DNA from: Takakia lepidozioides
Taxonomy: Eukaryota; Plantae; Bryophyta
DNA length: 64,000 bases
NCBI GenBank assembly: GCA_030704615.1
Contig: CM060731.1
Coordinates: 59,396,001-59,460,000, forward strand
Reading direction: 5' to 3'
Positions 3,251 to 63,772 of the stretch are shown here, piece after piece. The notes beneath the pieces are model-generated. The model made no database searches and had not been told where the DNA came from. It saw only the letters and a list, made by a program, of their open reading frames with translations. Position 1 is the first letter of the stretch. Each line of letters opens with the position of its first letter. The position numbers and the translations under genes are program-made.

Positions 3251-3285
3251 GTGTGGACCTGTATAGGTGAAAAAATAACTGAACG

Positions 3286-34200: not shown

Positions 34201-34336
34201 CAAGCAGCTGAGGAAGAAGTTTGATCCAAAGGGTTTGAAGCTACGGTTGGTTGGATATTGCAGTGACAGCAATGCATATAGGCTTTGGGATCCAATCAGG
34301 AGACAAATAAAGGTGAGCAGGGATATAATTTTCCAT

Positions 34337-36334: not shown

Positions 36335-36470
36335 TAGAATTTTAATGAAGTCTCTGTAAATGTAAATTCTCTTCCAGAGTATATAAAGGAAATTCTCCCC
36401 GACATTCGTGACCCCTCTCCAGTGTGCATTCTAGCCACACAATCGCCCAAACCACGACGCTCCCAAAATC

Positions 36471-37193
36471 AGAAATGGGGCACCACATTTCCATGTACGA
36501 CCGAAATTTTGGCAACTCTAAAAACCTCTTTTGGAAATGCGGCACCGCATTTCCAAAACAGGGGAGGGACTAAATTTTCCATTTCATTGTTGGCATAGTA
36601 AAAAGTAATCGGCCGATTGGAAATGCGGTGCCGCATTTCCAAAATTTCCTTTGTCCACACGCCAGTTTTGGCCTCTCCCGCTCATTTCATGGATGCCACC
36701 ACGCTTACAGAGGTCGAACAAGGAGGTCGAAATTGCGGAATTGGAAATGCGGTGCCGCATTTCCATATTGGGGATGGTCGTTGTTCGAACTGTAGGCCCA
36801 TCAGCAAAAATTGGCACCGCATTCCATTGTAAAAAAAAAGTCGATGACGGACATGGAAATGCGGCGCCGCATTTCCAGAACGGACATCGCAATTTGTCCA
36901 TTTGCAGACCCTCTCACGGAAATGCGGCAACGCATTCCATCGCGCTGGTCGGAAATGTCACACTTTTCGAAGTGTTGGACGGAAATGCGGCACCGCATTC
37001 CCTTGTCCAAAAAGAAGTTTCCATTGCCAAGCTGGAAATGCGTCGCCGCATTTGCAATGCCAACCTCGTTGTCTGTCCAATTTATAGACCCGTGTTGGTA
37101 TTTCGTGTACATGGACGGAAATGATGCACCGCATTCCAATGTCCGACATGGAAATGCGGTGCCGCATTTCAATGTCCGAGGTTCTTCATCGTG
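36471..37193. repeat. Array of ~11 palindromic GGAAATGCGGNNCCGCATTTCC motifs ending at a putative CAC-type TIR
   Basis: Copies at 36471, 36533, 36619, 36743, 36807 (partial), 36855, 36918, 36981, 37034, 37117 and 37150. The array ends ...TTCTTCATCGTG (reverse complement CACGATGAAGAA), after which Copia-like sequence resumes. Confidence 0.8.
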
Positions 37194-39195
37194 GGAACCT
37201 TGGAGTTAGGGTTTTGGCTAGTGATCAACCCACTGAGGGTTTTTGTCAACAAAATCTTGAAGAGAAGGTTTTGGCTAACAGAGGGTTTCAGCCAACAAAA
37301 CCTGCACTTGAAAAAAGAAACCATGAAGGCAAAATTACCATAAATGAAGCACGATCAGAGCTGAGGCACCGTGAGATGAGAAAGACTGCATCAATCCCAA
37401 GTTGGGATCAATGGATCAAGAGATATTAGAACCAGCTCCATCAAAGACCGAGGGAGAATCTGTTGTGCCAGTGGGAGCTGATATCGCATCTGGGAACCTA
37501 TTTGTAAAGGGAAGGATAGATGGTGATGAAGTAAGAACAAGACCAGTGAGGAATAGAAGGCCACCAAACCATTATGGAGAGTGGTGGGAAACAACTGGAA
37601 GAAAAGATTCACAAGCTTGGATAGTTGTGGCAGTAGACATGGGGACCATGGAAGAACCTGCATCGTTTCAGGAGGCAACCCAGTCAGCCCATTGGATCGG
37701 GGCCATGAACGAAGAATTTTCATCGCTCCAAAAGAACAAGACATGGGAGCTAATACACCTGCCCCAAGACAGAAAGGCCATAAAATGCAAATGGGCATAC
37801 AAAACAAAGGTGAAGGCTGATGGTACAATGGCACGCTATAAAGCACGTCTTGTAGCAAAAGGATGTTCACAGATTGCTGGAATTGACTACGATGAGACAT
37901 TCTCACCTGTTGTCAAGTTTGATTCCATTCGAGTCATCCTAGCTATAGCTGTAGCGGAGGACATGGAGATTCATTCAGTTTGATGTGAAGACTGTCTTCC
38001 TTAATGGAGATCTTCACGAGGAGATTTACATGGAGAAGAAGGTGATGTGGAGAAGGGACAAGAAAATATGGTTTGTATCCTCAAGAAAAGTCTTTACGGG
38101 CTGAAGCAGGCATCAAGGGTGTGGATTTCATGAGTTCTTGGTGAGATATGAGCTCCAACCTAGCTCTGCATACCCTTGTGTTTATTATAACTCAAGGGGA
38201 TCTAAGATCATCACAACCATTTTTGTAGATGATGGACTTGTATGCGGTGTTGACCGAGCAACAGTCAGCTTACATACTGTGAGGCAGATTGCTATGTTGG
38301 ACTTCAAATCACTCGGGACAGACCTCTATGCAGGATTTTTCTCAGTCAAACGACAACCATCGTGGAGCAGTTTGGCTTGCAAGATGCCTGCCCTGTGTCC
38401 GTTCATGCAGACCCTAATTCCCAGCTAAGACCTTTCTTGGATCTTATTGATGATATCCCGGATGAAGTGGAGAGCGTGTTGTATCAGAAGGCAGTTGGAA
38501 GTCTCATGTTTGCCATGATAGGCACTTGGCCTGACATTCGATAGGCCATGAGCATTGTGGCAAAATTTAGTGCCAAGCCAAAACGAGACTATTGGGAGGC
38601 TGTCAAGCGTGTGTTCAAGTATCTCAAAGGTACCATGCACTATGGTCTGTGCTTCAGTGGAAGTGATTCTTTAAATCAACTTCTCGGATTTTGTGACTCT
38701 AACTATGCAGGGGATCTCGATACTAGAAAATCCAGAAGTGGTTATGTTTTCATCCTAAATGGTGGGGCAATAGGGTGGACCAGCCAACGCAATGCACATC
38801 AACTTCCACGACTGAGGCTGAATATGTACATCATGCATTGCTACCAAGGAAGCGGTGTGGCTCCGCATGCTCTTACATGACACTGGTTTTGGGAGGGAAA
38901 GACAACGGCTCTGTGCAGCGATAATATGGGCTCCATAAGATTGGTACATAACCCGGAGTTTCATAAGCGCATCAAACATATCGATGTCCAGTATCACTAC
39001 ACTCGAGATAAGCAAGTAGAGAAGGTCATTGACATCAAGTATGTCAGCACGCATGAGCAAATGACAGATATTCTTACAAAGGCTCTAGTTGCTGAGAAGT
39101 TTAACAAGATCCGCAATGCATGTGGTATAATGGCATGTGGTTTTGGCTGATGAAACTGCTTGTGATTCTGTAAGGGTTGATTTGATAAGTGGGAG

Positions 39196-41451: not shown

Positions 41452-42380
41452 CAGTGTTGTGCGGGTCCGGGTTTTGAAGGCGGGTACCCGGCGGGTTACG
41501 ATCCAGGTTACCCGGATCCGCACCCGGACCCGTGCTATCACAAAAAACCCGGACCCTAACCCAGATTCATTTCTAAAATGAACCCGGAACCGGACCCGGA
41601 CCCGCCTGCTGGGTCCAGAACCCGTTAAACCCGCTACCCGTGGGCCAATATAGCGGGTCAGGTCCGGGTCTTAAATTTAATGGGGCATACGGGGTCCACC
41701 TTAGATCTGGTAGGTTTTGTCATATGTGTGGAGGGGACGAGCAACAACAGGCCGCAGCAGCCAGCCCCACCACGTTGTAGCCCAGTGGTAATGCCCACAT
41801 ACCACCTCAAAAGCGGTTGTGGGTTCAATCCCCGGAGTGGTGTCACAAAGTTGTGACCTCTGGGACCATAATTTACACCTCCCAAAGGAGACGTCATATA
41901 TTATTATTATGCCAGATCCCACACATCCATGCTATAGCTTGAGGCATATTACTATTCTTAACATGTTTAAAGAATTGATATTAAAAAATAGAAAATGGAA
42001 CTCAAACTTAATTTAATTCTTATTCATGTATACATATTCATATTCATGATATATTTTGAAGGAATGTCTCTTAAAATAAAATTCATTATTAGGATTTAAA
42101 GTTTTTTCCAGCCAAAAATAAATTTATCCCTAATTAATCTTGATTTTCTAATTTACTTAATCAATAAATTAGGACCCGGATCCGAACCCGTGAACCCGCT
42201 AATATTTCCCAACAACTACCCGGACCCTAACCCGAGTCCGTGTTGACAAACCCGGACCCGAACCCGGACCCGGATTTTCCAAATTTCAAAAACCCGGATC
42301 CAGACCCGGACTTGGCTCCGAAAAAAACCCGCACCTGGACCCGTCGGGTTCCTTAAAAAGGCAGAACCCGCACAACACTG
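41452..42380. mobile_element. hAT-type MITE no. 2 with (ACCCGG)n subterminal repeats
   Basis: Perfect 15-bp TIRs CAGTGTTGTGCGGGT / ACCCGCACAACACTG; TSD GTCCAGAC at 41444-41451 and 42381-42388. Confidence 0.9.
41772..41900 (+). mobile_element. tRNA-like SINE head inside MITE no. 2
   Basis: A box TAGCCCAGTGG and B box GGTTCAATCCC, but no intact cloverleaf. Confidence 0.5.
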
Positions 42381-42479
42381 GTCCAGACTCATCCAAGAGG
42401 GTTGGATTTCAAGCACAAGATTGTCGGCAAAGTGAGCTTTTTTCATGTAGGATGTGAGGGAGTCTAGAGGTTGACTGAA

Positions 42480-42995
42480 CTTTGGTACGATGTATATGTA
42501 TACCAAATGTGAGAGCATCTTGGATGCAAAGGCAATGTTTGACCATATGGCGTGCCAAACAAGTTGTAGTATACCGTGTCTTGGAGTGGTGTGATTGTAG
42601 GATATGCACAACATGGGTGTGGATGGAGGCTTTGGATACCAATGAGCAAATGACGTGGGAAGGGGTGAACACTGACCAGGTGATGTTCGTTTGTGTTTAT
42701 AATGCTTGTGTGAGCCTGGTAGCCCTGGAAATGGGTAAAGTAGTCCATGGTGACATTATCAAAGTTGGAATTCATGTACTTGAATGCGCGGGAAGGGATA
42801 AAGCCAAACCAGATCATATTTTTGGTGTTTGTGTGTGCAAGCTTGGCAGCCCTGGGATGGGCAAAGGTAATGTGGTCCATGGTGAAATAATCAAAGCTGG
42901 AACCGTACCAGATATCATTCTGAACAACATTACCCTCCTAGACATGTATACTAAATGCAGGAGCATCAAGGATGCAAGGGCGTGTTTGACAATGT
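42480..42995 (+). pseudogene. Degenerate PLS PPR fragment
   Basis: EALDTNEQM-WEGV--DQVMFVCVYNAC-SL-ALEMGKVVHGDI and LLDMYTKCRSIKDA, with frameshifts. Confidence 0.75.
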
Positions 42996-43426
42996 ATACT
43001 TGAGTGTTCAAGCGCCGGCAGATGGTTTTCAAAGCTTCCCCACGTGTGCTCATCCCCTCTCTAAACGGCATTAGCCCTTACGTTGTCGCTACACGGCAAG
43101 GTGCTGCCAGATGGTTCTCGAACCTTAGGCCTACACACATGTCTTTCTCCTATGGCTGCATCCATCCCTCCACTATACCCCAGGTCTCCCTCTCTATTGG
43201 TAATTTGGTTGTTCCCACCGGCTCTACGTCCATCAACCATCCTTAGTTGAATCTTGCTTACACTTTCCTTCCTATTTTTTTGCACCCTCGTTTCTCGCCC
43301 ATAGCCCCTTTTGCTCGTTCCATTCCCTCATTTTGTGATTCTTCAATCATCATCTAATCCTCAGAGCCCACACAAACTTGAGGGGCTTATTAACAATATT
43401 AAAAACAATATAAAATATAACGTAGG

Positions 43427-43773
43427 TGTCAAGTTAAATAAGCACAGTGTGAAAACAGCTAGAATAAAACTAGTTATTTGTATTTAACACTTGGATTTAG
43501 GTCAAGTGTTAAATCAGGTGTCAAGTTTAGTTTGACACCTGGTCTGTCTTATCTTCACGAGAGCGGCAGTCGCGCAGCTCATCTCTCTCGAGTTGAGCCT
43601 GCGCGACCGAGCTCCTTCATCGATTCAGATATGAGTGTGCTTATGATGGGAGTGTAGGTTGTTGTGGGGTGGAGTCCCCATAGCTTGGGGTGCCCCTGGC
43701 TCGACTTCTATTTCTAAGAGTGATGGTTTGGTTTTCATGCTTTGCATCGTGTGTGTCCTTAGCTTTCTTATCA
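43427..43773 (+). repeat. Left terminal repeat segment A (near-identical to 54896-55232)
   Basis: TGTCAAGTTAAATAAGCACAG...GCTTTCTTATCA; only a few small indels versus the right copy. Confidence 0.95.
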
Positions 43774-43791
43774 CTCGAGAGAGATGAGCTG
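43773..43791 (+). promoter_or_regulatory. Self-priming PBS complementary to LTR positions 43575-43593
   Basis: ACTCGAGAGAGATGAGCTG is the exact reverse complement of CAGCTCATCTCTCTCGAGT. No tRNA-type TGG PBS is present. Confidence 0.8.
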
Positions 43792-44786
43792 TCTAGTTTT
43801 CTAGTGCTAAGCTAGATATGATGTTTTCTGTTTTTAAGCACTATTATAATATAGCTTGGTCACAGGGAGCCTGCAGTCAGACTAGCTATGTGTGCCGAGT
43901 GGAGCAGTACAAGAAGGCGGAAACCATTTGAAGTGTTGCTGCAACAGTTCAAAGCCAACAATAATCAGCCTGGGAGACAAGGAGGCCTGCCGTGCTCAGT
44001 TTATGAGGGCACTCGTGCTGCAGCGCGAGAAAGACCATTGGTCGGAATCCCCCGTTTGGGCTGGCTGGGTTTGATTTATATTGGCGACTTGGAGGCGCTC
44101 CAGAGTTTCGTTGGCAGTGGGTGTTGAGCCGTTCAGGCTATTCGTGTGTGGCTTGAACCTCACCAGCCTGCCTAGCACCTGTGTGAGGGGGCTTGTTACA
44201 CCACTGCCTATATATACTGGGATTCTTGCAGGGCCTGGCTTGTACACGTTCATGATTTCAAACTCGTCCCGTGGTGGTGTAAGTGGATCTCTCAGCCTTT
44301 GCGAAGGTAGACTGCGCTGCATGGTTGGTCGCTGATACAAATTTGGCTTCAGACTGCTGCTTCTGTTGGGATTGAGGCTCCTGGACTCTAACCAGAGGAG
44401 CCTCAACGGGAAACGGATCAGGAAAGTGCAAAGGTAGTAGAGTCGTCGTTTTAACTTCCTGGGGTTGTGCATGTCCCTTGTGGAGACGCTGGCAGAATTG
44501 AAACTTAACACACAAGCTAGGTTCAAGCGGGTACGTGCCTGTGAGCAGTGCTGCGGGGCCCTTATGCCGAGTTATTCACGCTGGTGGTGTTCCTACTAGT
44601 AGGGAGTTATTCTAGCTAACTTCGAGCTATAATGCCTCAGTCCCGTCATGCTCATTATGTCTATCATAGTGCACCGTGGCCTTACGTTGTCACAGGAAGA
44701 CAAATCTAGCTGTGAACCCTGGACCTCGCAAAGTTCTCACACCCTACCAGGAGTGGAACAAAGAAAGTGCTCGAGAGATCCCCATT

Positions 44787-44965
44787 GAGAAATTGAAGGT
44801 TATCGGTTCCCTGGACAACTGGGCGCAAGAGAATTTGCTACCCCTTTGAAGCCCGTAGACAAGTGCTGGCAACCCCAGGACTTCCTTCCTGAAGCTTCAT
44901 CGGAAAGTTTCTTTGATGAGGTAACGGAGCTCCGAGCCCGGGCCAGGGAACTGCCTGATGACTAT
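44787..44965 (+). pseudogene. Captured stearoyl-ACP desaturase (FAB2/SSI2 family) fragment inside the Gypsy leader
   Basis: [59 protein letters not shown], with one frameshift. Confidence 0.85.
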
Positions 44966-46175
44966 GTGATGTGGCGTTACAGAGAGGCCAGATACTGGGC
45001 CCACTTTGGTACCCTTGGGTAATTGATAAGGTGATAGGAGCTGACCTTCTCGCCCATCAGGTCTTGTAGCAGGGAAGAAGGGCTGAAGGAACTCGTCATG
45101 CTCTAATTGGCCAATGCTCCAAGTGTGTGGAAATCAGTGTTGCAGATCACACAGATTACTCAACTGCACGATTTTGGAGGAACAAATGACCTACAGATAC
45201 GGCACACAAAAGGTCACATCAACAGATCAAGGCTGAGAGTGGATTAAGTGTGAGTTTCGGAGATATATGAGTGATTCAGGAGGAAACAAGAGCAGTCGGC
45301 CCCATACTGGTCACAGAGCAACGGACGGATTGATGCGTGATCAATCATTGAAGTCAAGCATCAAAGTAATCAGCGGAAGAAAGGGTGGAGAGTGTAACAG
45401 AGACCTCAAGACATGGTCTGGCAGTCGAGTTTGAAGTGCAGGCTGCCGTAATCTCCCTCCATGCGAGCTGGAACTTACGGGAAACGATCTGAGAGTTAGC
45501 AAGTATGATGACGGACACCTGAACAAATGCAGCTGAATGACGAAGCGGCAATGCGGTCCATCATGGAGGAGAAGCCGATCGGAGCTCAACAAATCGAGCT
45601 GCTCCGTGGTAATTGGCGAGGCGACCCCAAAACAACAGAGAACTACATGAACATGTTCGGAACTGTGTAGATACCTGGGAACGGTTCTTAATGCGGGAAC
45701 GTTTTGGTGTTAAAAAAAAAAAAAAAAACTTGATCTAATTAAATGATAAAGAGTCTGGTTGGTCATACTTTGTCCAATGAGCTCCGTTGACTCAGTTTTT
45801 GAGGGATAGCTGCAGAAAGGGGAAATCTACCTATCTAGACCTGGTTTCTGTTTTTGGGACTCTGCTAAAAATCTATGGAATTTTAGAGTGTGAGTGTGCC
45901 ATGAAAGATCCACAATCCTGTTTCTAGAACCTGTGCTGGTCTATATGAGAGACAAATCTGGGATGTACTCCTTGTATGGCTGGGGGAAATGAGGACGTAA
46001 TTGAAGGGCAGGTCTTCTCTTAGCCTGTGCACCAAAGGGGACAAGATTTATGTTTCCCAAGGAAACTCAGACTGATTTGAGTGGAGAACAGTTGGACGAG
46101 TTGATTGATTGGGGAGTCAGGCATTAGCAGTAGACAACAGACTGCTTAGTTGGCATTGAGGGCCTCAATATCGCC

Positions 46176-46724
46176 TTGGACAGTCAGAACTCTGTTGGAG
46201 CCAGCAGTTCTGCAGCTGTAGGTGAAATACCAAAGTGGGTGAAAGCTAGGCTTGGAACACAGCCAAAGACAGCCCCGGGGACCAAGGTGTTCAGCCACAA
46301 GGCCGTGGTGTACTGGAGCAGAGGAGCAGGAGCTACACAAGTTTGTGCAATCAGACACGGTTGCAGCCGGATACGCTCTGCACAGGGCAACCACGAGCGG
46401 GGGTTCATCAGCAATGACATGTTTGTTGTGCGTGAAGGAGATGCAGTCATTCGCAATGAGGACACCCGCAACCGTCTCAAAGCTTTCGAGTTGAGAGACT
46501 ATCAGACCCTACCTTTGTTTTCTTTAGTGTTCAGTGAGCGGGAGATAGGGGAGTATTGCTTTGTCTCTACCTGGCAGAAAGAGGAGGAGGAGGGTTGGTT
46601 AGAGCGAGCTACTGTAGCTTGGGACAAGGTTAGTGGCAGGTTTCTGGACATAGATATACCTCCTACACCTTACCATCAAGCAGAGCGAGGCACTTTGAGA
46701 GAAGTCTGGAAGTTGATAGCATAG
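46176..46724 (+). CDS. Extra ORF of unknown function upstream of gag
   Basis: 182-codon open frame with protein-like composition; the frame extends upstream through stop codons. No motif recognised. Confidence 0.4.
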   Translation: MDSQNSVGASSSAAVGEIPKWVKARLGTQPKTAPGTKVFSHKAVVYWSRGAGATQVCAIRHGCSRIRSAQGNHERGFISNDMFVVREGDAVIRNEDTRNRLKAFELRDYQTLPLFSLVFSEREIGEYCFVSTWQKEEEEGWLERATVAWDKVSGRFLDIDIPPTPYHQAERGTLREVWKLIA

Positions 46725-47240
46725 ATCAGGATTAGATCTTGCTTGGGCGGGCTTCTATTCTTCCCCTCCATCTCTGTACTATTTTCATTACCTTGTACTT
46801 GTAGTTGCCAAAGCCTCTCTTGGTGGAGGCCAGTCAGTCCGGGGTTTTGGGCTGGGATATTCTGCAGGATCAGCATTGCAGCTGGATTTTGGTGTGGGGG
46901 TGTTGATTTTGATTTCTTGTGTTTGGATCCCCCCAACACCTGCATGCTTGACTGTGCGCCATGTTGGTTTTGTGTGGGCGCTTGCTTTCATAGGGATTAG
47001 GCCGGATTTGATCACCGGTCAATCCTAGAGTATGCTGTCGGTGGTGAGGCTGGAGTGATGACCAGCAAGACCACCAGTGTTTCTTCTATGGTGAGGCTGG
47101 GTTGATGACCAGCCAACCATAGGAGTTCTTGCGGTGGATGCAGGTGCAGGTGCCCTGAGCCATTGGGATATGACCCTTAAACTGCAACAGGTGCCCACCC
47201 GTGTCACTATTAGATTAGTACTAGAGCCTTATAGTGTCAC

Positions 47241-49750
47241 GTGGAGGAGGTGCACATTGTGAGTGTCATTACGGAGTTACCCAAGGGTTTTGAGGGGAGT
47301 ACGGCTACAGGCAGTAACAGTGAGAGTGGGTTCACAAGACGAGGTATTCGGTTCAGACCACCTTCACCGCCACCCTCAATTACTGTAGAGTCAGACACAG
47401 ACTCGGAGGCTTCATCAACAGGTGTGCACTTTCATTCGCCATTGTTGTGGGACGACATGGAGGAGATGTATGGAGCTACCAAGGGGCCTCGTAGGTACTC
47501 TGGAGCTGTGGGCACAATCGAGTTGGATGACTTTATCCAGGAGTTCGACAGCTGGTGTGATTTGCAGCAGATGCGCAATCCACAGCTATTCACCCCATTC
47601 ATGGCGTGGAAGGGACTGTTCCAGCATTTGGAAGGCCCGCCTATGGACGATTACCACGAGTTCAGGCGAGGACATGAAGCAGAGATTGAGGAGTGGAGGA
47701 TGTATTGGTCACCTGACTACGTCTCCCATTACTCGAGGCACGACGCGACCAGTAGCTGCATCAGTACCAATAGCTCCCACTGCCAGCACTAGTAGTGGAG
47801 CAAGTAGTGCTGGTACTTCTGCAGGTGGTACCAGTTCAAAAGGTGCTACTACTCCTCCTGCCACGACTACAACACATGTGCCTAGATTCAACCCGGTGGT
47901 GGAGTTCTTCCAGGAGTTGCGGAGGAGGAACTACCAAGGTGTACGGACAGAGAAGCTGCGAAGTTTGCAAGACTTCCAGCGCAAACCCAGTGAGAGCCTG
48001 CGAGAGCGTACACTCGTATGAGGCGCTTGATAAGTGTGACCCAAGGGGTTACTGAAGCTCAGGCAATCCAGTTTTGGTATGGAATTCTGGACAAGGAGCT
48101 CAAGAGAAGGGTGCGAGATGCAACCCTGTTACAAGCAGCCCAACCCACATTAGCAGATGTGTTTCTGCTGGCTGAGCGGATTGAGCTCAACATGGTGGAG
48201 GAGCGAGTTGTTACAATTGGATTTGGCAAGGACATGCCTGTACGGGGCACAGCTGTCAGCCCACAGGCACAAGGGACTGCCCAACAGCGTGGTCAGGGGG
48301 GCAAGGTTGCCCAGCCCAAGTTCCATGGAGCTTACAGGGGACCTCAGGTGCAGAGGCCCGTGGGCATTTTGCAGGCCAACAGCAACCAGGGGTGATATGT
48401 TGGACATGTGGAGGACCCCATGTCAAAAGAGATTGCCCAGAGAGTGGCAGAAGGCCGGCACAAGCACAGCCTGCACAGTTGCAGTGTGGGCATTGTGGCA
48501 AGTATGGGCATGGAGATGCCCAGTGTTATGACTTGCATCCTGAGTTGCGCCCAGGCCAGTTCCAAGGGAACAATGGTGGCCGGGGGCGAGGTGGACCAGC
48601 CCAAAGAGGACGAGGTGGTCGGGCACGAGGTGCAGGCCAAGGGCAAGCTCCACATGGCCAAGGACGCGGAGGTCAGGGTGTTGACCAAGGCATGGCCAAT
48701 CGGCTTCAGCAGCTAGAGCAGAGGCTCGCTGCCATGGCTATAGCTCAGGCGGTACCGGCTCCCAGGCGGGATGGTCCACCTCCTGCTCCTGAGGGAGGAG
48801 ATATGGGAGGCATGGGATTCATGTGCGGAGCAGCACTACCACTAGAGCAGGTGGAGTCTGCTGCAGCCGTGACTCGAGGAGCAGCACGAGTTCCTGAGCC
48901 ACGAGGTGCAGAGGTGGAGTTGGATCCACAACGTGGGGAGGCAAGCCGTCAGGCGAGGCTCCTCAGTCATTCACCTTGGCGGAGACAGTGTCAACGCCAT
49001 CCATGGCACCTAGTTCTCGCCCGACTGTTACCGAGGCGGAGGTTACTATGCCATTGGGGAGAGCTACACGTGCAGCACTGACACCTGCTACCAAGGCTAG
49101 TGCAGCCGGTGTGTTATTGGGGGCAGCCACCTCTGTGTGTCAAGCCCCACTGTTCTCGGCAACCATGATTGCGACGCCGGGGGTGAGACCAGCTGCAGTG
49201 TTCAGACTAGCAGCAACACTCTGTGAGAGTGGGGAGGTCACTTCATCTTCTGCGGAGTTAGTGGAAGGTGTAGTGGCAGAGGGATCCTCGGATTTGAGGG
49301 TCAAGACTGCCACGGCTGCGCCATGGCAAGCTGCAGCTGCCAGGTTGACGGAGCTGCCAGCTAGGCCAGCCTTTGAGCGCGCCATGGTGACACCTGGAGT
49401 TGTCTTGTTAGACAACCAGGGAGGCATTTTCACTTTGAGTGGACCGGCAGGCAAGAAGTACCGGCCACTGCGGGTCTTGTTGGACTCAGGAGCTCAGCCA
49501 CTGATGTTGGGCAGAGCTGCTATTGCAGGTTTGGGCCTCATGGAGGCGGATATGGAGCCTTGTCCTTTCCAGATACAGACATCTCTGGGAGGATCAGAGC
49601 AGGCTCGGCATGACACGGCATCAGTTGGCTATTAGACTGCAGCCGGATCATCCTGTAGATGGCTCAGTGATGCGAGCCAAGGCCATTGTGACAGACGCGG
49701 TCTCTTACGATGTCCTCGTTGGTGGGGCAGTGTTATACCCCATGGGCTTC
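47241..49750 (+). CDS. Gypsy gag (two zinc knuckles) and aspartic protease, frameshifted
   Basis: ELDDFIQEFDSWC, CWTCGGPHVKRDC, CGHCGKYGHGDAQC, RVLLDSGAQP, YDVLVG. Confidence 0.85.
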
Positions 49751-50192
49751 ACCCTGGATTTGGGAGGAGTCAGCATCCTACAGGCCTGGATGGCAGTCAG
49801 GGGATGGTCGCCGTGCACAGCTCCCTGTGACATTCATTGGGGGTATTGCAGCTGCCCAGCGGGGCAAGATGCCAACACTAGCCGCCTTCACAGCTGCAGT
49901 TAGTTGGCCTGGAGAGTTGCTGGAAGGCAATGCCCATGCAGAGGATGTGCCACCTCCAGCAGAGCAGGATGACATGCATGGTACGGCGGAGTTGCCTGCC
50001 ATGGTTGCTCACACTCCGTTGTGGGGTACGAGCAAGGATTTGCAGCAAGCTGCTGATGGACGGGTGCAACAAGCTTGGGTAGAAGCTTTTGTACCGTCAG
50101 GAGAGGAGGAGAGTGCGGTGATTGCACCAGGGCCACCTCAGTTGTCGCCATTGGACACCACACCTCTTGTGTGGCAGCGGCCGGATGAAGGC

Positions 50193-51135
50193 ATTTGCCT
50201 TCTGGACTTGTTTGGCGGGATCAGCACCGGATTGGCTGCTGTGCTACAGGCAGGTGTGCGGGTAAGGCGTTACCTGTATGTGGAGAGGGATGAGACTGCA
50301 CGACGCGTCTCACTGCGCCATGTTGCTCAGTTGGTACAGCAGTACCCTGACTTGTTGCCTGTGTCTGCAGTTCGTGGATACCAACAAGCCTTGCCAGCAG
50401 ACATTTCCTTGTTGGGGGGCGCAAGATTTGGAGCAGGTTGGCTCCATTGATCTGTAGTGGCAGGTTGGCCCTGCCAAGGGCATTCATCAGCCGGGCATGG
50501 CAATGGATTGCGAGACTCGAGGACGGGTCTGTTTTGGGAGATGGTGCGGATTTTGCGCTGCTTGCAGCTTCATCAAGCTGTATCTCCAGCATACATCTTG
50601 GAGAATGTGCCACTGATGGGTGATTCTCGGGCCAGGGTGATGGCCAGTGTGCATCAAGTCCGGTCGTGGCTTGGGTCAGCAGTATTGCTGGATGCAGCTG
50701 CAGTGGGGTCACGGGCTCATCGTCCACGACTATGGTGGACTAACTTGATGCCACCCGCACTGCTCAAGCGTGCATTTGATGGGGTGCAGCGGCCAGCACA
50801 CCTCACCGTGGATGGCATTTTGGACACAGGAAGGCAGTCTCAACGTGTGAGACACGATGACCGTTCGCCTTTGGCAGTGGTCAACAGGGTGGGTCAACCA
50901 CGAGCAGCATTACCTACACTGCTCAGCTTCCCAGGATCCCATGCTTTTCGGGATGGTGGACCTGGCCTCCTGTGGGATGCTCAGTTGCAGCAGTTAGTGG
51001 AGCCTAATGCCGACGAGCGAGAGCGGGCTATGGGGTTTTCCACTGGGACCACGGCGGTGCCTTCTCTTTCTGAGGCATCACGTCGTCAGGTGTTGGGGCA
51101 AGCAATGGATCTCAATTGCTTGACCTGGATTGTCA
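50193..51135 (+). CDS. DNMT3-like C5-cytosine DNA methyltransferase domain within pol (one frameshift near 50420)
   Basis: Motif I LLDLFGGISTG, II YLYVERD, IV AGWPCQGHS, V LFWEMVRIL, VI YILENV, VIII RAHRPRLWWTNL, IX ERERAMGF, X RRQVLGQAM. Confidence 0.93.
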
Positions 51136-51639
51136 GCTTGGCTATGGCTGAGCAACGTAGAGTGCGGAGTGCACTTCCCTTGACGGTCTCTCTGCCTACC
51201 GAGACGGTACAGGCAGCGAGTGGGGGCGAGCCGGTGAGGACCACGAGGTGTAGACATCCATGGCACATGTGGGAGGTGCTCGAGGTCAGAGGGAGTTGGC
51301 AGCGAAGGCAGCTGTGATGGATGAGGTTGGGGATTTCTTCTCGGGATGAGGAGGTTCTCAATGATGAGATGATGGGCAGGATGAGGCCTTGTCATTGACT
51401 GAGCAGGAAGGGGGTACTGCTCAAGAGGTTGCAGCATAGCAACCACGGGACGCGTCCTCTACCTCTAAGCCCACTGGACTTAAGGTTGCAGTTACGGAGG
51501 ACAATTGGGAGCCTGACATTGGACCCATTGTCACCGGAGGAGAGAGACGACGTATACGGCGGTTCCTGAGGGCTTACAGGAATTGCTTTGCCTTCAGTTT
51601 GAAGGACTTGGGAGCACTGAAGGGTCAAGAGATCCGTAT

Positions 51640-54300
51640 TGAGTTGGCCACTGACGCCAATCTTTCGGAGACCCTATAGATACAGTGACATGGAGAGGTC
51701 TTTGATTCAGATGAGGACTCAAGATCTCTGGGAGGCAGGTTTGGTGGAGCTCTCTGGTGGAGATGCTTCAGCCACAGTGATGCCAGCTAAGAAGGATGTC
51801 TATGGCAATTGGACGGAGAGACGTATGTGCGGTGATTACCGGCCTGTAAATCGTCAGACCAAGTCCGATAGGTATGCCATGCCAACACCAGAGGAGATCT
51901 TTGATGCCATTGGGCATTCCAAGGTCTTTAGCACGTTGGATTTACGATCCGGATATCACCAGTTGCCGATCAAGGAGGCGGATAAGCAAAAGACGGCATT
52001 CTGGGGGATCAATGAGCACGGGAAGGATTGCCTATACCAGTGGCGGTTCTTACCATTTGGGCTTAAAAACGCTCCCGCTGAGTTTCAAAGAGTCATGGAC
52101 AGGATTCTAGCAGGGGTGGAGTTTGCTCGGTGCTACATAGATGACATCATCATCTTTAGTGCTACGGTGGAGGAGCATGAGAGACACCTTCAGGGGGTAT
52201 TTGAGCGCTTGAGGACGCACGGATGAAGTTACATCCGGGCAAGTGCAAGTTTTTCCACAACCAGATTGAGTATCTGGGTCACATGATATATCCTGGAGGA
52301 TTGGGGGTACAGCAGACTAAGGTAGAGTCCATTGCACAGGTTCCACGCCCCACGGATGTGAGCCGAGTTCGAGCTTTCATGGGGGGTTAGCTATTACAGG
52401 ATTTAGTGCCATTGCAAAGGCTCTAACCAAGCTGACCAAGGTGGACCAGGAGTGGCAGTGGGAAGATGAGCAAGAACAAGCTTTTCAAGAGCTCAAGGCG
52501 AGGTTGACCTCGGCGCCCATCTTGAGACGACCTATCAGGGGGCGTCCTTTTCAGCTGCATACAGATTGGAGCATGCTGGGGCTTGGAGCGGTGCTCACAC
52601 AGGTGGATGATGAGGGAAGAGAGTTCGTAGTGGCTTATGCTAGCCGCTCGAACAATGCTGCAGAGTCTAAGTATAGCTCATATGAGGGAGAATGCTTAGC
52701 TGCAGTGTGGGCCGTGGCACACTTCAGGTGCTATCTATACGGCAATCTCTTCACCCTTGTCACGGATCACCAACCACTCAAGTGGTTGATGGAGTCAGAC
52801 AAGCTTACGGGGAAGCTTGCACGGTGGGCACTCATCCTTCAAGAGTATGACTTTCAGGTGGTGCATCGACCGGGTTTGGTCAATCGAAATGCAGATGGGT
52901 TGAGTCGCAATCCATGCACGAGCCAGCAGGATGACACTGGAGCTCGGTGGCATGGTGTGAGACGGACGAGGAGATGGTGCCCGGATGGCATGCATCTGCA
53001 TTTCTGTGTATCTTGGCAGCGGAAGGCCAGGTTGGACCTACAACAGGGATGACTGTAGATCAAGTGTCTGAGGACCTGAGGCCAGCAATGAGCAGGGTGG
53101 CGCCAAAGATATACATGAGGATTCAGTTGTGTTGGACTACCTCCGCAGTGGAGACACGCAGCCACTATGACTGCCAAGGAGAGGGATCGGATCCTACAAC
53201 GAGCCAAGAGGTTCAGGTGGGAGGGGACACACCTGCTCCGAGTGTGGGAGGATGGTCGAGTGAGGATTGTGCCTCACCCAACACAGCGGGCACGGTTAGT
53301 GCGGCATGCCCATGAGGAGTTGGGGCATTTTGGGGTGCGACGCACTCATAGTCTACTGCAGGGGCAGTATTGGTGGCGTGGTATGCACACAGAGGTGCAA
53401 CAATTTGTGGCTAGGTGCATGGTGTGTGACAGGGTGCGTGCTTCATTCAACGCCCCTACTCCACAATTGCACCCTCTTCCGATCATGGGATTGGGCTACA
53501 GGTGGAGTCTTGACTTCGCAGGGCCGTTGCCACTGACCATGCGCCACAACAAGTACGTGTTGGTGATGGTGGAGCACTTCTCCAAGTGGATTGAATTGGT
53601 TCCATTGCCTGATAAGGCTAGTGAGGGAGCTGCGTATGCATTCCTGGATTGTGTGCTTAGCCGATTCGGTGCTCCAGCTGAGGTACTCACGGACCAAGGG
53701 AGAGAGTTCTTGGGGGAGTTTCAGGCTTTGTGTGACAAGGCCTTGATAGACCACCGCACCACTTCTCGGATCATCCTGAAGCCGATGGCTTGGCAGAGAG
53801 AGTTGTTCAGACAGTAAAGAGGGGTTTGCGCAAGTATGGCTTGCAGAAGGGACACCTAGGAGATTGGGACCTTCAGTTACCCTGGTTAGCCATGGGCTAC
53901 AGGTTCAGCAAGCAAGCATCACTTGCCTCCTTCTCACCATACTTTCTTCTCTTTGGCCGAGAGCCGGATTTGCCTACATCCATTCGCAGAGAAGCTGCTA
54001 CAGTTCTTAACCTTGACGATCCGGACGTGTGGGCACGTGCATGTGAGCAGCGTGCAGAGTTGTTCAAGAGAGTCATGCCCATGGCTTTCGAGAACCTTGC
54101 CATTGCACAACACCGTGATACGTTGAGGTATGCTACCATACGTGGTGGGGCTATCGTCCTGGGGTTCGGAGATTCAACCCTGGTGACTATGTCTATCTGC
54201 AGCAGACTGCTCCTACGACCCTGGATGTGACTGCAGGACGTGTTATTTTGAGGGTTCGAGAGGTCTTGCCCTCAGGCGTCTTGGTCTTGGAGGGTCGGGA
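51640..54300 (+). CDS. Gypsy RT, RNase H and DDE integrase (frameshifted)
   Basis: RMCGDYRPVN, LDLRSGYHQ, PFGLKNAP, YIDDII; LHTDWS, EGECLA, TDHQPL, ADGLSR; HEELGH...CMVC, WSLDFAGP, LTDQGREF. Confidence 0.93.
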
Positions 54301-54407
54301 TGGCATCAACTTGGAAGGACCATGTGCGTAATTGTGCGCCATGTCACCTTCCGAATGTCGATGGCAGGATTGACCCAAACCTGGCAGTGGTATCTGCAGG
54401 TTTGAGG

Positions 54408-54549
54408 TGCATGTTGTGTGGGTGCTAAAGGGGCAGCCACCATGCTGGTATGTGATCGGTGCTCTAGAGGTTGGCATATGGGATGCTTGACTCCACCTCT
54501 TGAGATGGTTCCGGATGGGGATTGGTTATGTCCACATTGCATTGGATAG
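54408..54549 (+). CDS. PHD finger (C4HC3) at the integrase C-terminus
   Basis: CMLC(G/fs)AKGAATMLVCDRCSRGWHMGCLTPPLEMVPDGDWLCPHCIG*. Confidence 0.88.
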
Positions 54550-54795
54550 TGGGAGTGGATACAACCATGGAGGCTAACAAGAAACGCAAGGCCCAGCTAC
54601 TAGGAGACCTTGAACACACGAGATCTGGCTCAAGTTCATAGATTGCAAGACGGCGACTAACGATGGGGCTACTCTTGTACCCGGCCTCTTGGTTGATAGA
54701 GTTTGAGCACGATAAGACAGTGATAGAGGACTTAGTACGGCTGTGGCTATTACATCTTGTAGCTATCTGGAGGTAGAGGGACCTATCCACCAGCT

Positions 54796-55320
54796 AGGGG
54801 GGCGATTGTGCAGACTACTTTATTGTGCATATATGTGTGTGTGTGGTTTGGACAGCGATGTAGTTGTGTGTAGCGATATGTATGCGCACGACAGCTGTCA
54901 AGTTAAATAAGCACAGTGTGAAAACAGCTAGAATAAAACTAGTTATTTGTATTTAACACTTGGATTTAGGTCAAGTGTTAAATCAGGTGTCAAGTTTAGT
55001 TTGACACCGTCTTATCTTCACGAGAGCGGCAGTCGCGCAGCTCATCTCTCTCGAGTTGAGCCTGCGCGACCGAGCTCCTTCATCGTTTAGATGAGTGTGC
55101 TTATGATGGGAGTGTAGGTTGTTGTGGGGTGGAGTCCCCATAGCTTGGGGTGCCCCTGGCTCGACTTCTATTTCTAAGAGTGATGGTTTGGTTTTCATGC
55201 TTTGCATCGTGTGTGTCCTTAGCTTTCTTATCGATTGTGCTAGACTACTTTATTGTGCATATATGTGTGGTGTGGTTTGGACAACGATGTAGTTGTGTAG
55301 CGATATGTATGCGCACGACA
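54796..55320 (+). repeat. PPT (54796-54806), B (54807-54893), GC, A (54896-55232), GAT, B' (55236-55320)
   Basis: AGGGGGGCGAT|TGTGCAGAC...; B and B' are near-identical; A matches the left terminal repeat. Confidence 0.9.
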
Positions 55321-56282
55321 TAGGCATATGATATGATGGTACTTTCGTCGGAATTATCCAAAATATAAACAAGAGACAAAAATTCAACATTAAGAGTTTT
55401 GACATTTCATTAGCTATTACCATTATCATATTTATACTATCATTAAATATTAATAAATCAAAATGTGCTTACCACAAATCAAAGTAATTTTTGGAAGTGG
55501 AATAACATTTACATTAAATATGTGAACTAACAAAAGACATAAAAAAGAGCATATTTGACAAAAATAATTTTTTTATTAATTTATTATTTTTTTTTGGGCA
55601 ATTTGGGCAGCTTCAAGAATGTACATTGGTGACTGGCCGAAACGTGGCGACGATGACGGGGTAGAGATGATTTTTTTTTAAATATTTATTAGAAAATTCT
55701 CCGGGCAGCTTTAAACAAATGACGGCGATGACAAGGCTGATGATGATGTGGTGACAATGATAATGATAACGTGGCAATATGACATCCTATCCACACTAAA
55801 AATAGTCTCCGACCTTCAGTCGTTACTAGAATTAAATCAAATGTTAAATCATATAAGATTTAAAAAAAAAATCTAAGAATCTAATAAAGACTATTGATAC
55901 ATGGATGAAGATAACATGGTCATTTGATGTACATTGTTTGACTGTCACATCAACCCTCAATAAATCATCTACAAGCATTAAAACTTGATGTAGTACGGTA
56001 AAGATTGTAGTTGAAGACACAGTCGTTTGATAATCCATATAGGTGCTCCTTTTATCAATGGAACCGTTCTGTCATTCATAATGCCTGTGTGCATCGATGA
56101 ACACAAGATGAAGGTGGTTAGGGGATGGATCAGGAAAAGCTCGATGAGGAAGAAGGGTCACGCTGAACGGAATGACGGAGGGAGATGTATGGGCAAGAAT
56201 CAACCACATTCCCTCTTTTGTAGCGAAATATTTTAATTTTGGCCTAGATTCAATTAGTGGGACATAGATACTGCAAGTGGTA

Positions 56283-58520
56283 ATGGCCATAATATTAGAG
56301 TATGAAGAAGACACTGAGACGGTTGAGATGCAAGGGGTAATAAAGGCAATGGGAGATCAAGAAGAAAATGAAGAGGAAGAGGAGGAAGAAGAAGAAGAAG
56401 TGGAAGGAGAAGAAGAAGATGAGGATGAGGATCAAGAAGAGGAGGATGATACAACATTGGATGATGAGAATGAATATTCACCAGATCCCTTTTCCTTGCG
56501 ACCTTTGGATGCCACCAACAATGAGAGGTCTCATGATGAAATCTTGGGGTATCTTTTGACAGAGCATCATCAGCAACCTTTGGATCTTCTTGCAACAATG
56601 ATTGATTTTTTGTTTCGTAAGACTGATGTGGCGGAGCAAGATGGGTTTCAAATAAGAGTATATGATATAATCTCTGTAGCCAAACGGAGACGAAGTGAGG
56701 AAGATGACAATGAGGATTCTTTCAGGGTCCCTGAAAAGATAGCCAAATTTGAAAACAATCCGAGAGCAGTTGACGAGACAAGACTAGAATTAAATGCACC
56801 TGCAAATCAAGAGGTAGGAACACCTTCTCTAAAAACCCTAGAAAATGAAGAGGTTTGCGCAAATATAGAGGTGTCACCCATCATGGTAGGAGAAGATGAG
56901 CCTGTATTAATTCTTCAGAAACATGAGGCCGATCCAATTGTAATATATTCTTTTGAGGAGGACCTAGCGGAGCTGGAATCTGTGGACAAAAATGTGGCTT
57001 CGCCTAAACCTCAATTGGAGGAACCTGAATCTCAAGAGGAAGATACTAAACAAGATGGAAAAGGATTGAGTACGTTTCTGTCTCTCATTTCATTTATGCA
57101 AGTTCTGTTATCATCTTTTTATATTTCTTGCATTAAAAAAAATCAAAATTGTGTTTTGTGGTCTGCATTATTCAGATCCCAACGCTGGGAACGGAGCAGA
57201 CCATGAAAAGTACTCTTGGATGCAGACACTCTCAGAAATCACATTGTATATTTCAATGCCAGTTGGCACGAAGTCAAGGGATGTGATTTGTGACATCAAA
57301 CGAAATTATTTTATCACAAGTGTCAAAGGAGAGTCCCCTATATTAGATGTAAGCTATTTCCATGGGCTTCATTTTCTTCCACTTTATGTTTAGTAATGTG
57401 GTTTGGTTCTTTTAGGACATAGAGACCTGTTAAGGCTAGGTTTCTTTTGATATTGTTTCAAACCCTGATCCGACTATTAGTTCTTTAGGCTTCCTTGGAT
57501 ATAAAAGTTGTTTCATCTTTTTTCTTTTTCCATAGGATCTAACAAGGGGAAAAAGATATTGCATGGATTTCAACTTTGTTTACACAATCAAGTTGTTCTG
57601 CAGGGCCAACTGTCCAATCCAGTGAAACCGGCTGAATGCTTCTGGAGTCTAGGTGATGCTTTTACCTTGATGTATTCCATTTGGATTTCAATCTCTCAAA
57701 AATAATAATAATGTATAGACCTAAATATTTGTTTGGATCCATTCTCTTCTTCCTCATACTCTTTTAAATATATAAATTTGTTGCATGGTTGGATTGTTGA
57801 GTTCAGAGGGTCAGACTTTGTCCATTCTTTTGACGAAGCACAACAAAAATGAATGGTGGAAGTGTGTGGTGAAGGGAGAGCCTGAAATCAACACCCACAA
57901 AGTGCAACCAGAGAATAGTAAAATGTCAGATCTCGACCCCGAAACTCGCCAATTTGTTGAGAAATTAATGGTATGTAATTGCCAAAATTGCATTAGCAAT
58001 CTAGTTTTCTAAATCACTGAACTACTCTGATTACATGCAACTAAGTGTGGAAACTAGATGATAATTCCAATTCTGACTGAGGCGACCTGCTGAAAACAAT
58101 CAAACTTCCATGTCAACATTTTCATTGTATTAACGTATTCTAAATTATGGATGTCTGCAGTATGATCAACGACTGAAAGCCATGGGCTTGCCCACGACTG
58201 ATTCTGAAGTACAACAAAACCAGGATCTTGTGAAGAATCTTATGTCTCAGGTGTGCAGTGTCCCTCATGTATTGTCTTGTGATGGAAATTTTGTTAGGTT
58301 TTTCCTTAGTGAGTATTGCATAGTCACTCCTAGCAAACCCTATTGTTATTCCAAAAATATGTAACTTATGGGTGTAAAAGGACTAGGTAATTATATTGAC
58401 TTTACGTTAATGGTATTGATCAATGGCGTTTCTGGAAATAAATATGTGATTTTATTTTGTGGACTGTTGGTGGTACTACAGCATCCTGAAATGGACTTCT
58501 CAAAGGCCAAAATATGTTGA
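56283..58520 (+). CDS. BOB1: BOBBER1/NudC-domain co-chaperone, 6 exons
   Basis: MAIILEYEED, IDFLFRKTD, PNAGNGADHEKYSWMQTLSE, WWKCVVKGEPEINTHKVQPENSKMSDLDPETRQFVEKLM|YDQRLKAMGLPT, HPEMDFSKAKIC*. Confidence 0.9.
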
Positions 58521-61172: not shown

Positions 61173-61691
61173 GGGATAGATACTTGTCTTTGACCTTAGA
61201 TAGTTAGATACTTAAGAAGAAGATACCTAAGAAGATACCTAAGAAGATAGGTACTTGTCTTGACTTAATTGGAAATATTATCACGAGCATGCTCAGTCAC
61301 AAAGTCTTGCCACGAAGGCAGGGCCAATACAAGGGCGCCAAGCAGGAGATGGGTGAGAGATTTTATCGCCAACACCCTTGTTCATCCAGGTGGCCAAGGC
61401 GGTTCAACGGTGGCCGTGCACAAAGACAAGTGCAGCGTCGCTTTGGCTGCCACGCGTGAGCTAAAAAATGGGGGTAACCCGCACGCGGTGAGGAAGTTGA
61501 AGAGAGAGATATGGACAGCAGCTTCGTCAGGAATCTACAGCGCAGGAAGATATAAGGGAGATTAAGAATTTGTGTAGAGAGAGGAGGAATTTGGAGATGA
61601 TATCCCAGAACTGATCGTACAAGGAAACATTATTCGCAACGCAGTGGAGGAAGGGCTTGGTGATCATAACGCCCGAGGAAGAGAGCTAGTT

Positions 61692-63772
61692 ATGGCAAGA
61701 GGAAACATTGTGACGGTCGAGGAGCAAGTGCGACCTGGCGTGACTCATGAGAGGGGGTGGATTTCGCAAAGTGAAGAGTCTGAAGTAAATGAGCGAGACA
61801 GCGATCGAGCCGATGACGGCGGGCTGGTTGACTTACCTGATGGTTGTATCGGTCTAATTGCAATGCGCCTGAGTCCCAGGGACGTGGCCAGGGGAGCATG
61901 TGTCTGTCATGCTTTTCGAGATACTTTTCAGTCAGACCTTGTTTGGGAGCATCTGCTTCCAGAATCTTACCCTAAGATTTTGGCACTTGCCTCTGACGTT
62001 CCTCAGAGCTTTTCGAGTAAGCGCGATATATGTGAGTTTCTTTCTAGGCAAGTTCTTCTTCGGGATGGCACACAGGTGAGAGATGAGTCCGACTCTTCTC
62101 CGCTCCTTTTGTTGTTTTGTTTTCGTACCAGATTGTTTTATGACATGACAAGGTTTGCGAGTGATTTAACCACGAAGCTAGAGTCATTGTTGTGATGTAT
62201 TGGAAAGATTTGAAAGCATGATGTTCGACAAATCCTCCACGGATGCAAATCGTTATCTTTCTTAGATATATTCTAGACCTGGATTCCGGAATAGTTCATA
62301 ACCATATGAAAACTAAGGAACCAGTTTCTTTGTAGATCAAGATGAAATCTGTGTCACGTATGGTGCATTTTACTTCTTGAAAGAAATTAGTACACATCTG
62401 AGAAGCTCCAGTTTTGCCTTGTGGAGGCAGTGGCTTCGTGACAAATTTATGTAGTGGGAACTACATACCTATATATTTATGAATGGTAGGTATTTCCAAG
62501 TAATACGTAGCTGAAACGATCAACGGTAGGTCATATTCCAGAGTTGAGACTGCAAGAGATTCTGAAAGTTAGAAGTTTTTACTTCGAGAAGTATCGTCGG
62601 CTGACTTGACTATTAAATCACTCGATGTGTATCCCACTCCGTTTATATGTTTTGATGCATGGAATGTTGTATTGAACAGGCATACTGGTTGGATAAGGCC
62701 ACAGGAGCAGTATGCTATAGTGTGTCAGCAAGGGGCCTGAATATTGTTTGGGGTGATGATGATCAATATTGGATGTGGCTCCCCCGAAAGGGCTCGAGGT
62801 ACTTCCATTCCAATTATGAAGTGTTGTGATGTGAACATTTCCAATCTGGTTTCACCTTCGGTCTCAGTAATATGTTTTTTTCAGTCTTAAAACTATCAGC
62901 ACACCCGGGCATGACAAAGAGACTCTAATTATAAGTATTTGGTTCTTGTGTCTAGGGAGCATGAGGCAGTGAAGTTTGGAAGGAATTTGAAAAAGTATGT
63001 GCGATGTAAATTGTTATACTGATGCTGCTTATACAAGTTGATGGATTGAGGTATATTGAGCAGAACTTTGTGAGAAATCATGTCACTTGGTCACTTGCCT
63101 TTCTGCACCCCTCTCACCTACTGGGCATTATCCTAAGGCGAGTAATTGCATGCAGCTCAAACTGTTTGGGCCGTGTGCAGATGGCCAGAGGTAGCATGTT
63201 TGAAGCAGGTGTGCTGGTTTGAAGTTACCGGCGAGTTGAACTGTCTCCTTCCACCGGGATCTTACACTCTATCATTTCGACTTCAGTTGAACGAACGCAA
63301 GGACTCCAGTGGCGATCATGCATTCGGTTGGGCAAGTGCACCCACCGAATTTTCTCTTTCTTTGAGTGATGGCACACAGGCTTCCAGCAACCACCGTTTC
63401 TTGAGCAATCGGCTTGAAGATGCCACGCTTCAAAATCAGCTACAAAATATAACATCTGTTCGAGTGGTGGAAGACGACTGGATGGAATACGATGTGGGAG
63501 AGTTTGTTGTAGAAGAAGGGGGAAAAAGTGTAGATCTGAGGTTCTCAATGATAGAGATCGAGAGAGGACAGTGGAAAAGTGGGTTGAACTTGGATGGTGT
63601 TGTGGTTCGCCCGACTTCCCTGACGCACACGGTTGGTTACAAACCGACTTTGGCTGAGCTGGGGGAGAGTGCAACAAGAGCGACAACGGATTTTGCAGGA
63701 TTCTTTCGTGGAAGGAGGATGCTGCCCAGAGCAGGCCGTCCTCGCTTGCCTGATGTTAATGGTAGGAATTGA
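61692..63772 (+). CDS. F-box/PP2-A (phloem protein 2-like) protein; exons 61692-62075, 62680-62798, 63181-63772
   Basis: F-box LVDLPDGCIGLIA...DVARGACVCHAF...SDLVWEHLLP; PP2 domain YWLDKATG...SARGLNIVWGDD..YW, LKQVCWFEV, WMEYDVGEF, WKSGLNLDGV. Confidence 0.9.

Follow-up and report, generated by a model that had tools for sequence, protein, structure and literature searches.

The 64-kb window analysed here, that is, the whole 64,000-nucleotide stretch of contig CM060731.1 from the moss Takakia lepidozioides, contains at 43427-55320 an 11.9-kb Gypsy-domain retroelement that encodes a DNMT3-like C5 cytosine methyltransferase. The presence of such an enzyme in a retrotransposon is a real, conserved and old feature, and the land-plant case extends the range of a kind described from algae. 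The two stronger points to emerge, as judged from sequence, are a stop codon that would place the enzyme with Gag, and element ends that would imply insertion through an internal site. The domains follow each other in the order gag-PR-DNMT-stop-RT-RH-INT-PHD, with a zinc knuckle in gag (Table 1), and the Gypsy order PR-RT-RH-INT with a DDE integrase is thus found in the element. No chromodomain was matched by Pfam, a PHD finger being present after the integrase. Likewise, no tyrosine recombinase was matched in the frames scanned (roughly those of at least 100 amino acids within the element, on both strands, except for a few alternative plus-strand frames), a scan that a badly broken gene could escape.

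Table 1. Features of the element, with positions in the window.
Feature	Position	Strand	Evidence or remark
Left target-site duplication TAGG, 4 bp	43423..43426	+	Identical four letters 3' of the right end
Repeat A1, element start TGTCA	43427..43772	+	Repeat comparison; promoter and RNA start likely inside
Predicted self-primer segment within A1	43575..43593	+	19-nt perfect complement of 43773-43791; fold z -5.8, 0/200 shuffles
Putative self-priming-type primer-binding site	43773..43791	+	Directly 3' of A1; pairing maintained with other letters in related loci
Low-copy insert, broken acyl-ACP desaturase	43825..45728 (left edge approximate)	+	PF03405, E 2.8e-13; poly(A) 45712-45728
196-codon open frame	46134..46724	+	Within the high-depth 5' region
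gag and zinc knuckle, several frame breaks	47457..48961	+	79% to Marchantia P0005 N-terminus; zf-CCHC weak, E 0.044
Aspartic protease, broken	49345..49759	+	LLDSGA at 49477
DNMT3-like C5 cytosine methyltransferase domain	50187..51155	+	Motifs, Pfam, homologues, predicted fold
Conserved stop TAG CAA CCA in RT frame; predicted readthrough signal	51437..51445	+	Fits CAR YYA consensus (PMC2754532)
Reverse transcriptase (RT) and RNase H, frame breaks	51506..52950	+	PF00078, PF17917, PF17919; YIDD 52134
DDE integrase, frame breaks	53179..54420	+	PF17921, PF00665; H2C2 zinc-binding, LDFAGP 53509, LTDQGRE 53686, HPEADGLAERVVQT 53772
PHD finger, end of pol	54430..54546	+	PF00628, E 4.9e-11
Purine tract AGGGGGG, putative plus-strand primer	54796..54802	+	Abuts B1; equivalent position in related loci
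Repeat B1, ending GCACGACA	54803..54893	+	Repeat comparison
Palindromic junction CA-GC-TG of B1/A2, putative integrase site	54892..54897	+	Sequence and related loci
Repeat A2	54896..55232	+	Repeat comparison
Repeat B2, element end GACA	55233..55320	+	Repeat comparison
Right target-site duplication TAGG, 4 bp	55321..55324	+	Matches the left copy

The window copy carries at least 12 frame changes when compared with intact relatives. At most of the best 12 of 92 indel places (50453 included), one-third to one-half of the read depth differs from the window by 1-3 letters, and since so much of the depth disagrees with the window there, the breaks are either assembly errors or private to this copy. 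A young age of the copy is plausible, but its assembly looks error-prone. The desaturase insert, for which no flanking duplication was found around 43825-45728, is with its poly(A) a host mRNA fragment captured by the window copy; its depth was 4-12, against 12,000-42,000 in the element body (run X1), and it is not part of most copies. The 196-codon frame had no match in Pfam, none above 0.86 in the atlas and none in the 80 related loci, which had been chosen by their DNMT, and is possibly an extra gene of the window element's family.

Elsewhere in the window, host genes occur at 56268-57206 and 61578-63772 (NudC-like, with a weak Nudc_N match, and F-box/PP2), the element being upstream of the NudC-like gene by about 1 kb. 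The F-box/PP2 gene and the nearest relatives suggest a land-plant host, probably a bryophyte. At 21579-27730 there are pieces of a CACTA-type transposase (Transposase_21, DUF4218, DUF4216) with a NIF phosphatase-like frame, and at 18195-19952 and 33324-37980 an RVT_1 frame, likely of a LINE, and pieces of Copia (gag_pre-integrase, RVT_2). PPR-like repeats without a Pfam match were seen by eye at 29052-30248 and 42216-43003, and a long inverted repeat cluster at 2955-7432 is possibly a foldback element.

The methyltransferase domain and the stop behind it

The original prediction, made from this sequence alone, had placed C5 methyltransferase motifs with the catalytic PC and ENV between the protease and the RT, and this was borne out: motifs I, IV (PC), VI (ENV), VIII, IX and X were all found, in unpermuted order, behind the LLDSGA of the protease and ahead of the YIDD of the RT. 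Motif I (LDLFGGI, from 50202) is followed by YVERD, motif IV (GWPCQ, with PC at 50469-50474) by FWEM, and motif VI (ENV, 50601-50609) by RAHRPRLWWTNL, ERERAMGF and RRQVLGQAMD. In the window copy, a short out-of-frame stretch at about 50420-50453, with a stop at 50448-50450, lies between motifs I-III and motif IV. The Pfam profile PF00145, which had been suggested as a check on the domain, matched over 50451-51314 (E 3.8e-10). Among solved structures, the closest by sequence were DNMT3A/3C/3B (E 1.9e-24), ahead of DRM (4.3e-13) and bacterial enzymes (7.8e-09), while identity to animal DNMT3 is about 20-25%. A fold search was run with an AlphaFold model built from a 12-row alignment (pLDDT 86.9, the single-sequence model reaching 35.5), and all 33 matches listed were DNMT3-containing entries, with a TM of about 0.7. 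By sequence and predicted fold, then, the domain is a DNMT3-like C5 methyltransferase, as had been claimed, and DRM, DNMT2 and bacterial enzymes are all more distant from it than DNMT3 is.

The prediction had also put the domain inside pol. Instead, it ends the gag-protease frame, ahead of a conserved stop at 51437-51439 that divides the enzyme's frame from the RT, both being in the same frame. The lead-in of the RT was located within 500 bp in 52 of the 80 related loci, giving 49 distinct spacers. When these were read upstream from the RT in its own frame, 44 showed TAR-CAA (TAG or TAA, then CAA), the other five being damaged or divergent. One family accounts for 42 of the 44, with CAA CCC, CCT or CTC, which falls short of the full CAR YYA context; the latter was found in the window (TAG CAA CCA) and in the divergent locus L076 (TAA CAA TTA). 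The CAR YYA signal gives about 6-10% readthrough in Arabidopsis (PMC2754532). The Marchantia and Calypogeia ORFs stop at the same place, 75-79 residues past the domain, and 42 of the 46 intact gag-PR-DNMT ORFs from the database end 6-165 residues past it. ORF1 is thus gag-PR-DNMT. Marchantia has naturally intact domains, for example in Mp_4g09160 and Mp_8g17980. Since the conserved stop precedes the RT, the enzyme is likely produced at the Gag level, and synthesis of the RT-integrase-PHD part by readthrough appears quite probable from the codon context. In the main related family, though not in the window, an ATG lies two codons past the stop, and reinitiation could there take over from readthrough. 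Nor do all relatives have the stop, as DNMT and RT share one frame in seven proteins, three of them unnamed intact-looking ORFs. Both forms occur among the gene models of K. nitens: P0111 has DNMT and RT together, and P0106 ends just after the domain, meaning that the stop may be shared with Klebsormidium.

Terminal repeats and putative priming signals

The repeats of the element are split, with A1 at the left end and B1-A2-B2 at the right. A1 and A2 are alike in 337 of 349 columns (9 gaps), and B1 and B2 in 87 of 92 (4 gaps). The near-identical terminal repeats that had been noticed are thus there, but they are not plain LTRs, the ends having the form A...B-A-B. The termini are TG...CA, and the target duplication flanks A1 and B2. 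All six elements with both ends (window, L050, L055/L059, L014, L040 and L071) showed a 4-bp duplication, the sequences in these complete elements being TAGG, TCTC, CATA, TACA, TGTT and TGTG. The B-A-B arrangement was found in the window, in L010, L011, L050, L051 and L055/L059, and in L053, which has 49% identity, and CA-GC-TG or a near variant of it occurs at the B1/A2 meeting point in all nine junctions listed. That is, TG...CA termini, a 4-bp duplication, a predicted primer site and a purine tract are present as in an ordinary LTR element, whereas two full LTRs at the tips are not.

In seven of the eight related A repeats listed, TATAAA lies about 31 nt before the primer segment, and in related loci the pairing segment stands ahead of the same TGAGCC. 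Of 21 related A repeats scanned for self-primers, 5 had a perfect match of 10-12 nt where it was expected; the others, in which the match is shorter or different, are old copies. From the putative self-priming site after A1, the purine tract before B1 and the meeting of B1 and A2 in CA-GC-TG, it seems probable that the true LTR is B-GC-A, opened by the integrase at an internal site. Eight distinct right ends finish after a single B (A...B form), which counts against this reading. The copies at L040:13482 and L051:8171 occupy the same insertion site, with flanks 95% alike, one in the short A...B form and the other with B-A-B; since the short and the long form share a flank, single-B ends may possibly reflect loss after insertion or assembly collapse.

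Ends of the type A-B-A-B could also have arisen as in the DIRS-type elements Ngaro, PAT and VIPER, the RNA spanning B2, the B-A junction templating closure of a circle, and the A/B junction being inherited, with a DDE integrase having replaced the tyrosine recombinase. The repeat order is indeed identical (PMC6681497; PMC5890265, Fig. 4 legend), the A/B junction is nearly the same in four of five related insertions, and B precedes A at none of 15 left ends (that is, there is no A-B-A form). However, the primer site abutting A1 and the purine tract abutting B1 mark LTR-type synthesis and predict B-A tips, and the A2/B2 junction joins exactly those two points, where A lies against the primer site and B against the purine tract, with filler sequence there in L050. 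Moreover, a cut by the integrase at the internal junction would still be needed, and we regard this origin as unlikely. Ngaro, PAT, VIPER and TATE, as described in PMC6681497, share the order A1 ... B1-A2-B2 with the window element, which differs from them by its DDE integrase, TG...CA termini, 4-bp duplication, predicted primer site, purine tract and lack of a recombinase match. SymbioDIRS-Dnmt3 (PMC5890265) likewise combines a DNMT3-like domain with A-coding-B-A-B ends, and its enzyme methylates CG in yeast; it has a tyrosine recombinase in place of protease and DDE integrase, and its enzyme (P0131) falls outside the clade described below.

A proposed replication cycle and a possible role of the enzyme

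We favour, on balance, an explanation that combines a Gag-level DNMT, methylation of the cDNA and an internal integrase site. Most ribosomes would stop at the UAG and yield Gag-PR-DNMT, and a minority would read on into RT-RH-INT-PHD; the protease would then free the enzyme within the particle, beside the cDNA. The RNA would prime itself, and LTR-type synthesis between the primer site and the purine tract would give a cDNA with B-GC-A repeats at both ends, the two tips of which would be joined (A/B junction) either in a 2-LTR circle before insertion or by repair after it. The integrase would cut the internal palindrome after each CA, which would leave CA-3' ends with 2-nt overhangs and produce the A...B-A-B insertion. 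Marked by the enzyme, the cDNA would already be methylated on arrival, most likely for protection or camouflage, and the PHD finger may steer insertion by chromatin state. DDE enzymes that cut a joined end-to-end site are known from the circle junctions of the IS3 family. Foamy virus integrase cleaves the palindromic junction of 2-LTR circles (PMC1180852); there the joined site is made from the tips, whereas in the window it would lie permanently inside the LTR. From a circle with two equal sites, the mirror product A-B-A...B would also be expected, and its absence from the 15 left ends counts against the proposed cycle.

Release of the enzyme by the protease and self-methylation are both what we infer for this cycle, and for the cDNA as the main substrate of the enzyme we see about an even chance. 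Composition shows no sign of self-methylation, since the CpG observed/expected ratio of the element (0.50) resembles that of the flanks (0.54 and 0.58); the CpG and CHG ratios are uninformative. An active enzyme might instead act on the chromosome after insertion, methylating either the new copy or the DNA beside it (as self-silencing or to mark the target site), an option listed by de Mendoza et al. (PMC5890265). The PHD finger on the integrase would fit such a role, as would the fusion of the domain directly before the integrase in 60 of 67 RT-containing proteins, from where it would reach the target site. In the window, however, the stop follows the domain, which is grouped with Gag and would be made in large excess over the integrase, and action on the inserted copy thus seems rather unlikely.

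Another possible reason for retaining the domain is a function in the particle that is non-catalytic or directed at RNA, such as nucleic-acid binding or RNA methylation. No methylation was seen with the Klebsormidium enzyme in yeast, a result that its authors judged inconclusive (PMC5890265), and EC replaces PC at motif IV in 69 of 135 distant representatives of the profile clusters. Against this, the catalytic Cys, ENV and RxR residues are preserved in the window's clade, and the retro-DNMT3 of Symbiodinium methylate CG in yeast (PMC5890265), which makes a role of this kind improbable. Among the 72 aligned relatives (cluster members counted), 69 have the catalytic Cys and all have the Glu of ENV. 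The distant representatives, 53 of which have ENT for ENV, include a large active-site variant group.

That the features proposed for the window element define a widespread class of green-lineage LTR elements, in which the integrase site has moved inside the LTR, end-joined cDNA is opened, and a de novo DNMT packed at the capsid level methylates that cDNA, is a tentative generalization, for which we would give somewhat less than even chances. If it is true, the choice between the two sites for cutting could depend on methylation of CA-GC-TG.

Relatives, known systems and significance

Two database searches yielded 67 and 89 long proteins, and a profile search 531 clusters at 50% identity (E up to 1e-30). 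The domain is 54-73% identical to proteins of Marchantia, Calypogeia and Sphagnum (some partial), 26-47% to those of Klebsormidium and 39% to that of Closterium. In a tree of 57 domains, which omitted partial domains, near duplicates and the Sphagnum proteins, the window domain grouped with Calypogeia and Marchantia (100/100), and 54 retro-type domains, including those of Klebsormidium and Closterium, formed one clade (100/98) relative to three long-branched outgroups (fish DNMT3, the Symbiodinium protein P0131 and one further protein). The expected comparison with the Klebsormidium retro-DNMTs has thus been made, in a tree that holds no plant host DNMT3 or DRM; a search for the former listed 120 proteins, vertebrate or unnamed, none of which was identified as a plant host DNMT3. 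Nesting in a host DNMT3/DRM clade as a recent capture seems unlikely.

Between the window and 11 near loci, pS was 0.72-0.76, that is, synonymous sites are saturated, while the pN of the DNMT was 0.17-0.20 in nine loci, and 0.27 and 0.30 in the two whose alignment crosses a break. The RT gave close values (0.13-0.17 in 10 of the 11). At the sequence level the domain is under purifying selection and constrained like the RT, as measured between families and not among copies of the host genome, and the neutral evolution that had been raised as a possibility does not hold. RT and DNMT distances are correlated (Spearman 0.44, 0/999 permutations), which shows a long association only, since kin share both. 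Read depth in public DNA runs was even over gag, DNMT and RT, and X1 and X3 (one sample) each gave about 88,000 matching contigs; the DNMT is therefore a regular component of a large family, depth not being copy number. The window element's family is high-copy in its host. With relatives in Marchantia, Calypogeia and Sphagnum and this even depth, the one-off gene capture that had been considered can be set aside: although capture happens, as the desaturase fragment in the same copy illustrates, it is very improbable that one copy recently and passively took up a host DNMT3/DRM gene, given that liverworts, mosses and Klebsormidium agree in the position and order of the domain, that the protein is kept despite saturated synonymous sites, that its depth equals that of gag and RT, and that it is so distant from animal DNMT3.

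Some relatives are arranged differently. The layout RT-RH-DNMT-INT-PHD, that of the 60 proteins mentioned above with RT in the same frame (P0040, P0043, P0141 and others), has its own 20-row clade; on at least one occasion, the domain has moved within the element. L058, L062, L063 and L074 are internally inverted copies, in which inverted RH/INT/PHD comes before DNMT-RT and an inverted piece of DNMT-protease after it. The divergent families L064/L065 and L067-L070 have about 3 kb of partly tandem repeats between DNMT and RT.

Because of the RT-like conservation and the one clade with liverwort, moss, Closterium and Klebsormidium enzymes, the element is almost certainly a land-plant member of KnitGypsy-Dnmt3 (de Mendoza 2018), with no new capture. 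The element of Klebsormidium nitens has DIRS-like repeats (Fig. 4 legend) and a Ka/Ks below 0.2 (PMC5890265). Common to both are the Gypsy domains, an unpermuted DNMT3-like domain between protease and RT (K. nitens P0111), purifying selection, the DIRS-like repeats and the shared clade, and the window shows the intronless domain in a polyprotein and the A-coding-B-A-B repeats of that family. The hosts differ, an alga against a land plant, the two enzymes share only 38-47% identity, and PMC5890265 puts the domain in the Pol ORF. The available text of that paper mentions neither a stop, self-priming, a target duplication, a PHD finger nor the origin of the repeats for KnitGypsy-Dnmt3, and the word Marchantia is absent from it. 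The original prediction had not counted such elements among the described features of land-plant Gypsy lineages. In the literature outside subscription journals and Repbase, no paper on a land-plant DNMT-carrying Gypsy was indeed found, nor one on the stop of such elements or, the legend in PMC5890265 apart, on split repeats in a DDE element; as a member of the Klebsormidium family, however, the element is not a separate novelty. PMC12344493 and bioRxiv 10.64898/2026.05.21.726589 mention 'streptophyte' retro-DNMT3 by citing de Mendoza et al., and their trees or supplements may include copies from land plants.

Several other systems share single features with the element. The EpiLTRs of Cymbomonas and Euglena, also LTR elements, combine a cytosine methyltransferase with a chromatin reader, but their DNMT is sister to DNMT4 and accompanied by DAM and a chromodomain, and their authors separate them from streptophyte Gypsy-DNMT3 (bioRxiv 10.64898/2026.05.21.726589). 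The Tf1/Sushi and Tcn1 chromoviruses (Neumann et al. 2019, PMC6317226) also have a primer site complementary to their own 5' RNA; compared by features only, they differ in having ordinary LTRs and chromodomains, as against the PHD finger, DNMT and permuted repeats of the window. A PHD-bearing Gypsy is described from Chlamydomonas (PMC9940879). Troyka, with CG...CG termini, a 3-bp duplication and a distribution in animals only (PMC12440569), was rejected as a match for the TG...CA termini and 4-bp duplication found here.

The anatomy of the ends suggests a DDE integrase that would routinely use an internal junction, a departure from the rule of insertion through the tips of linear cDNA, and elements of this kind would probably escape tools that, as in PMC6317226, require a pair of LTRs with a duplication on either side. 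Retro-DNMT genes may also inflate the DNMT counts of bryophyte annotations. From the position of the stop, each particle would be expected to contain much enzyme. The function of retrotransposon-borne methyltransferases has been an open question since 2018, their hosts in print being algae that are hard to work with. As the family occurs in liverworts and peat mosses and is high-copy in the present host, the question of their role can be answered in a tractable plant, and Marchantia, which has whole gag-PR-DNMT frames, would make both claims, the Gag-level enzyme and the internal-site insertion, approachable in a model land plant.
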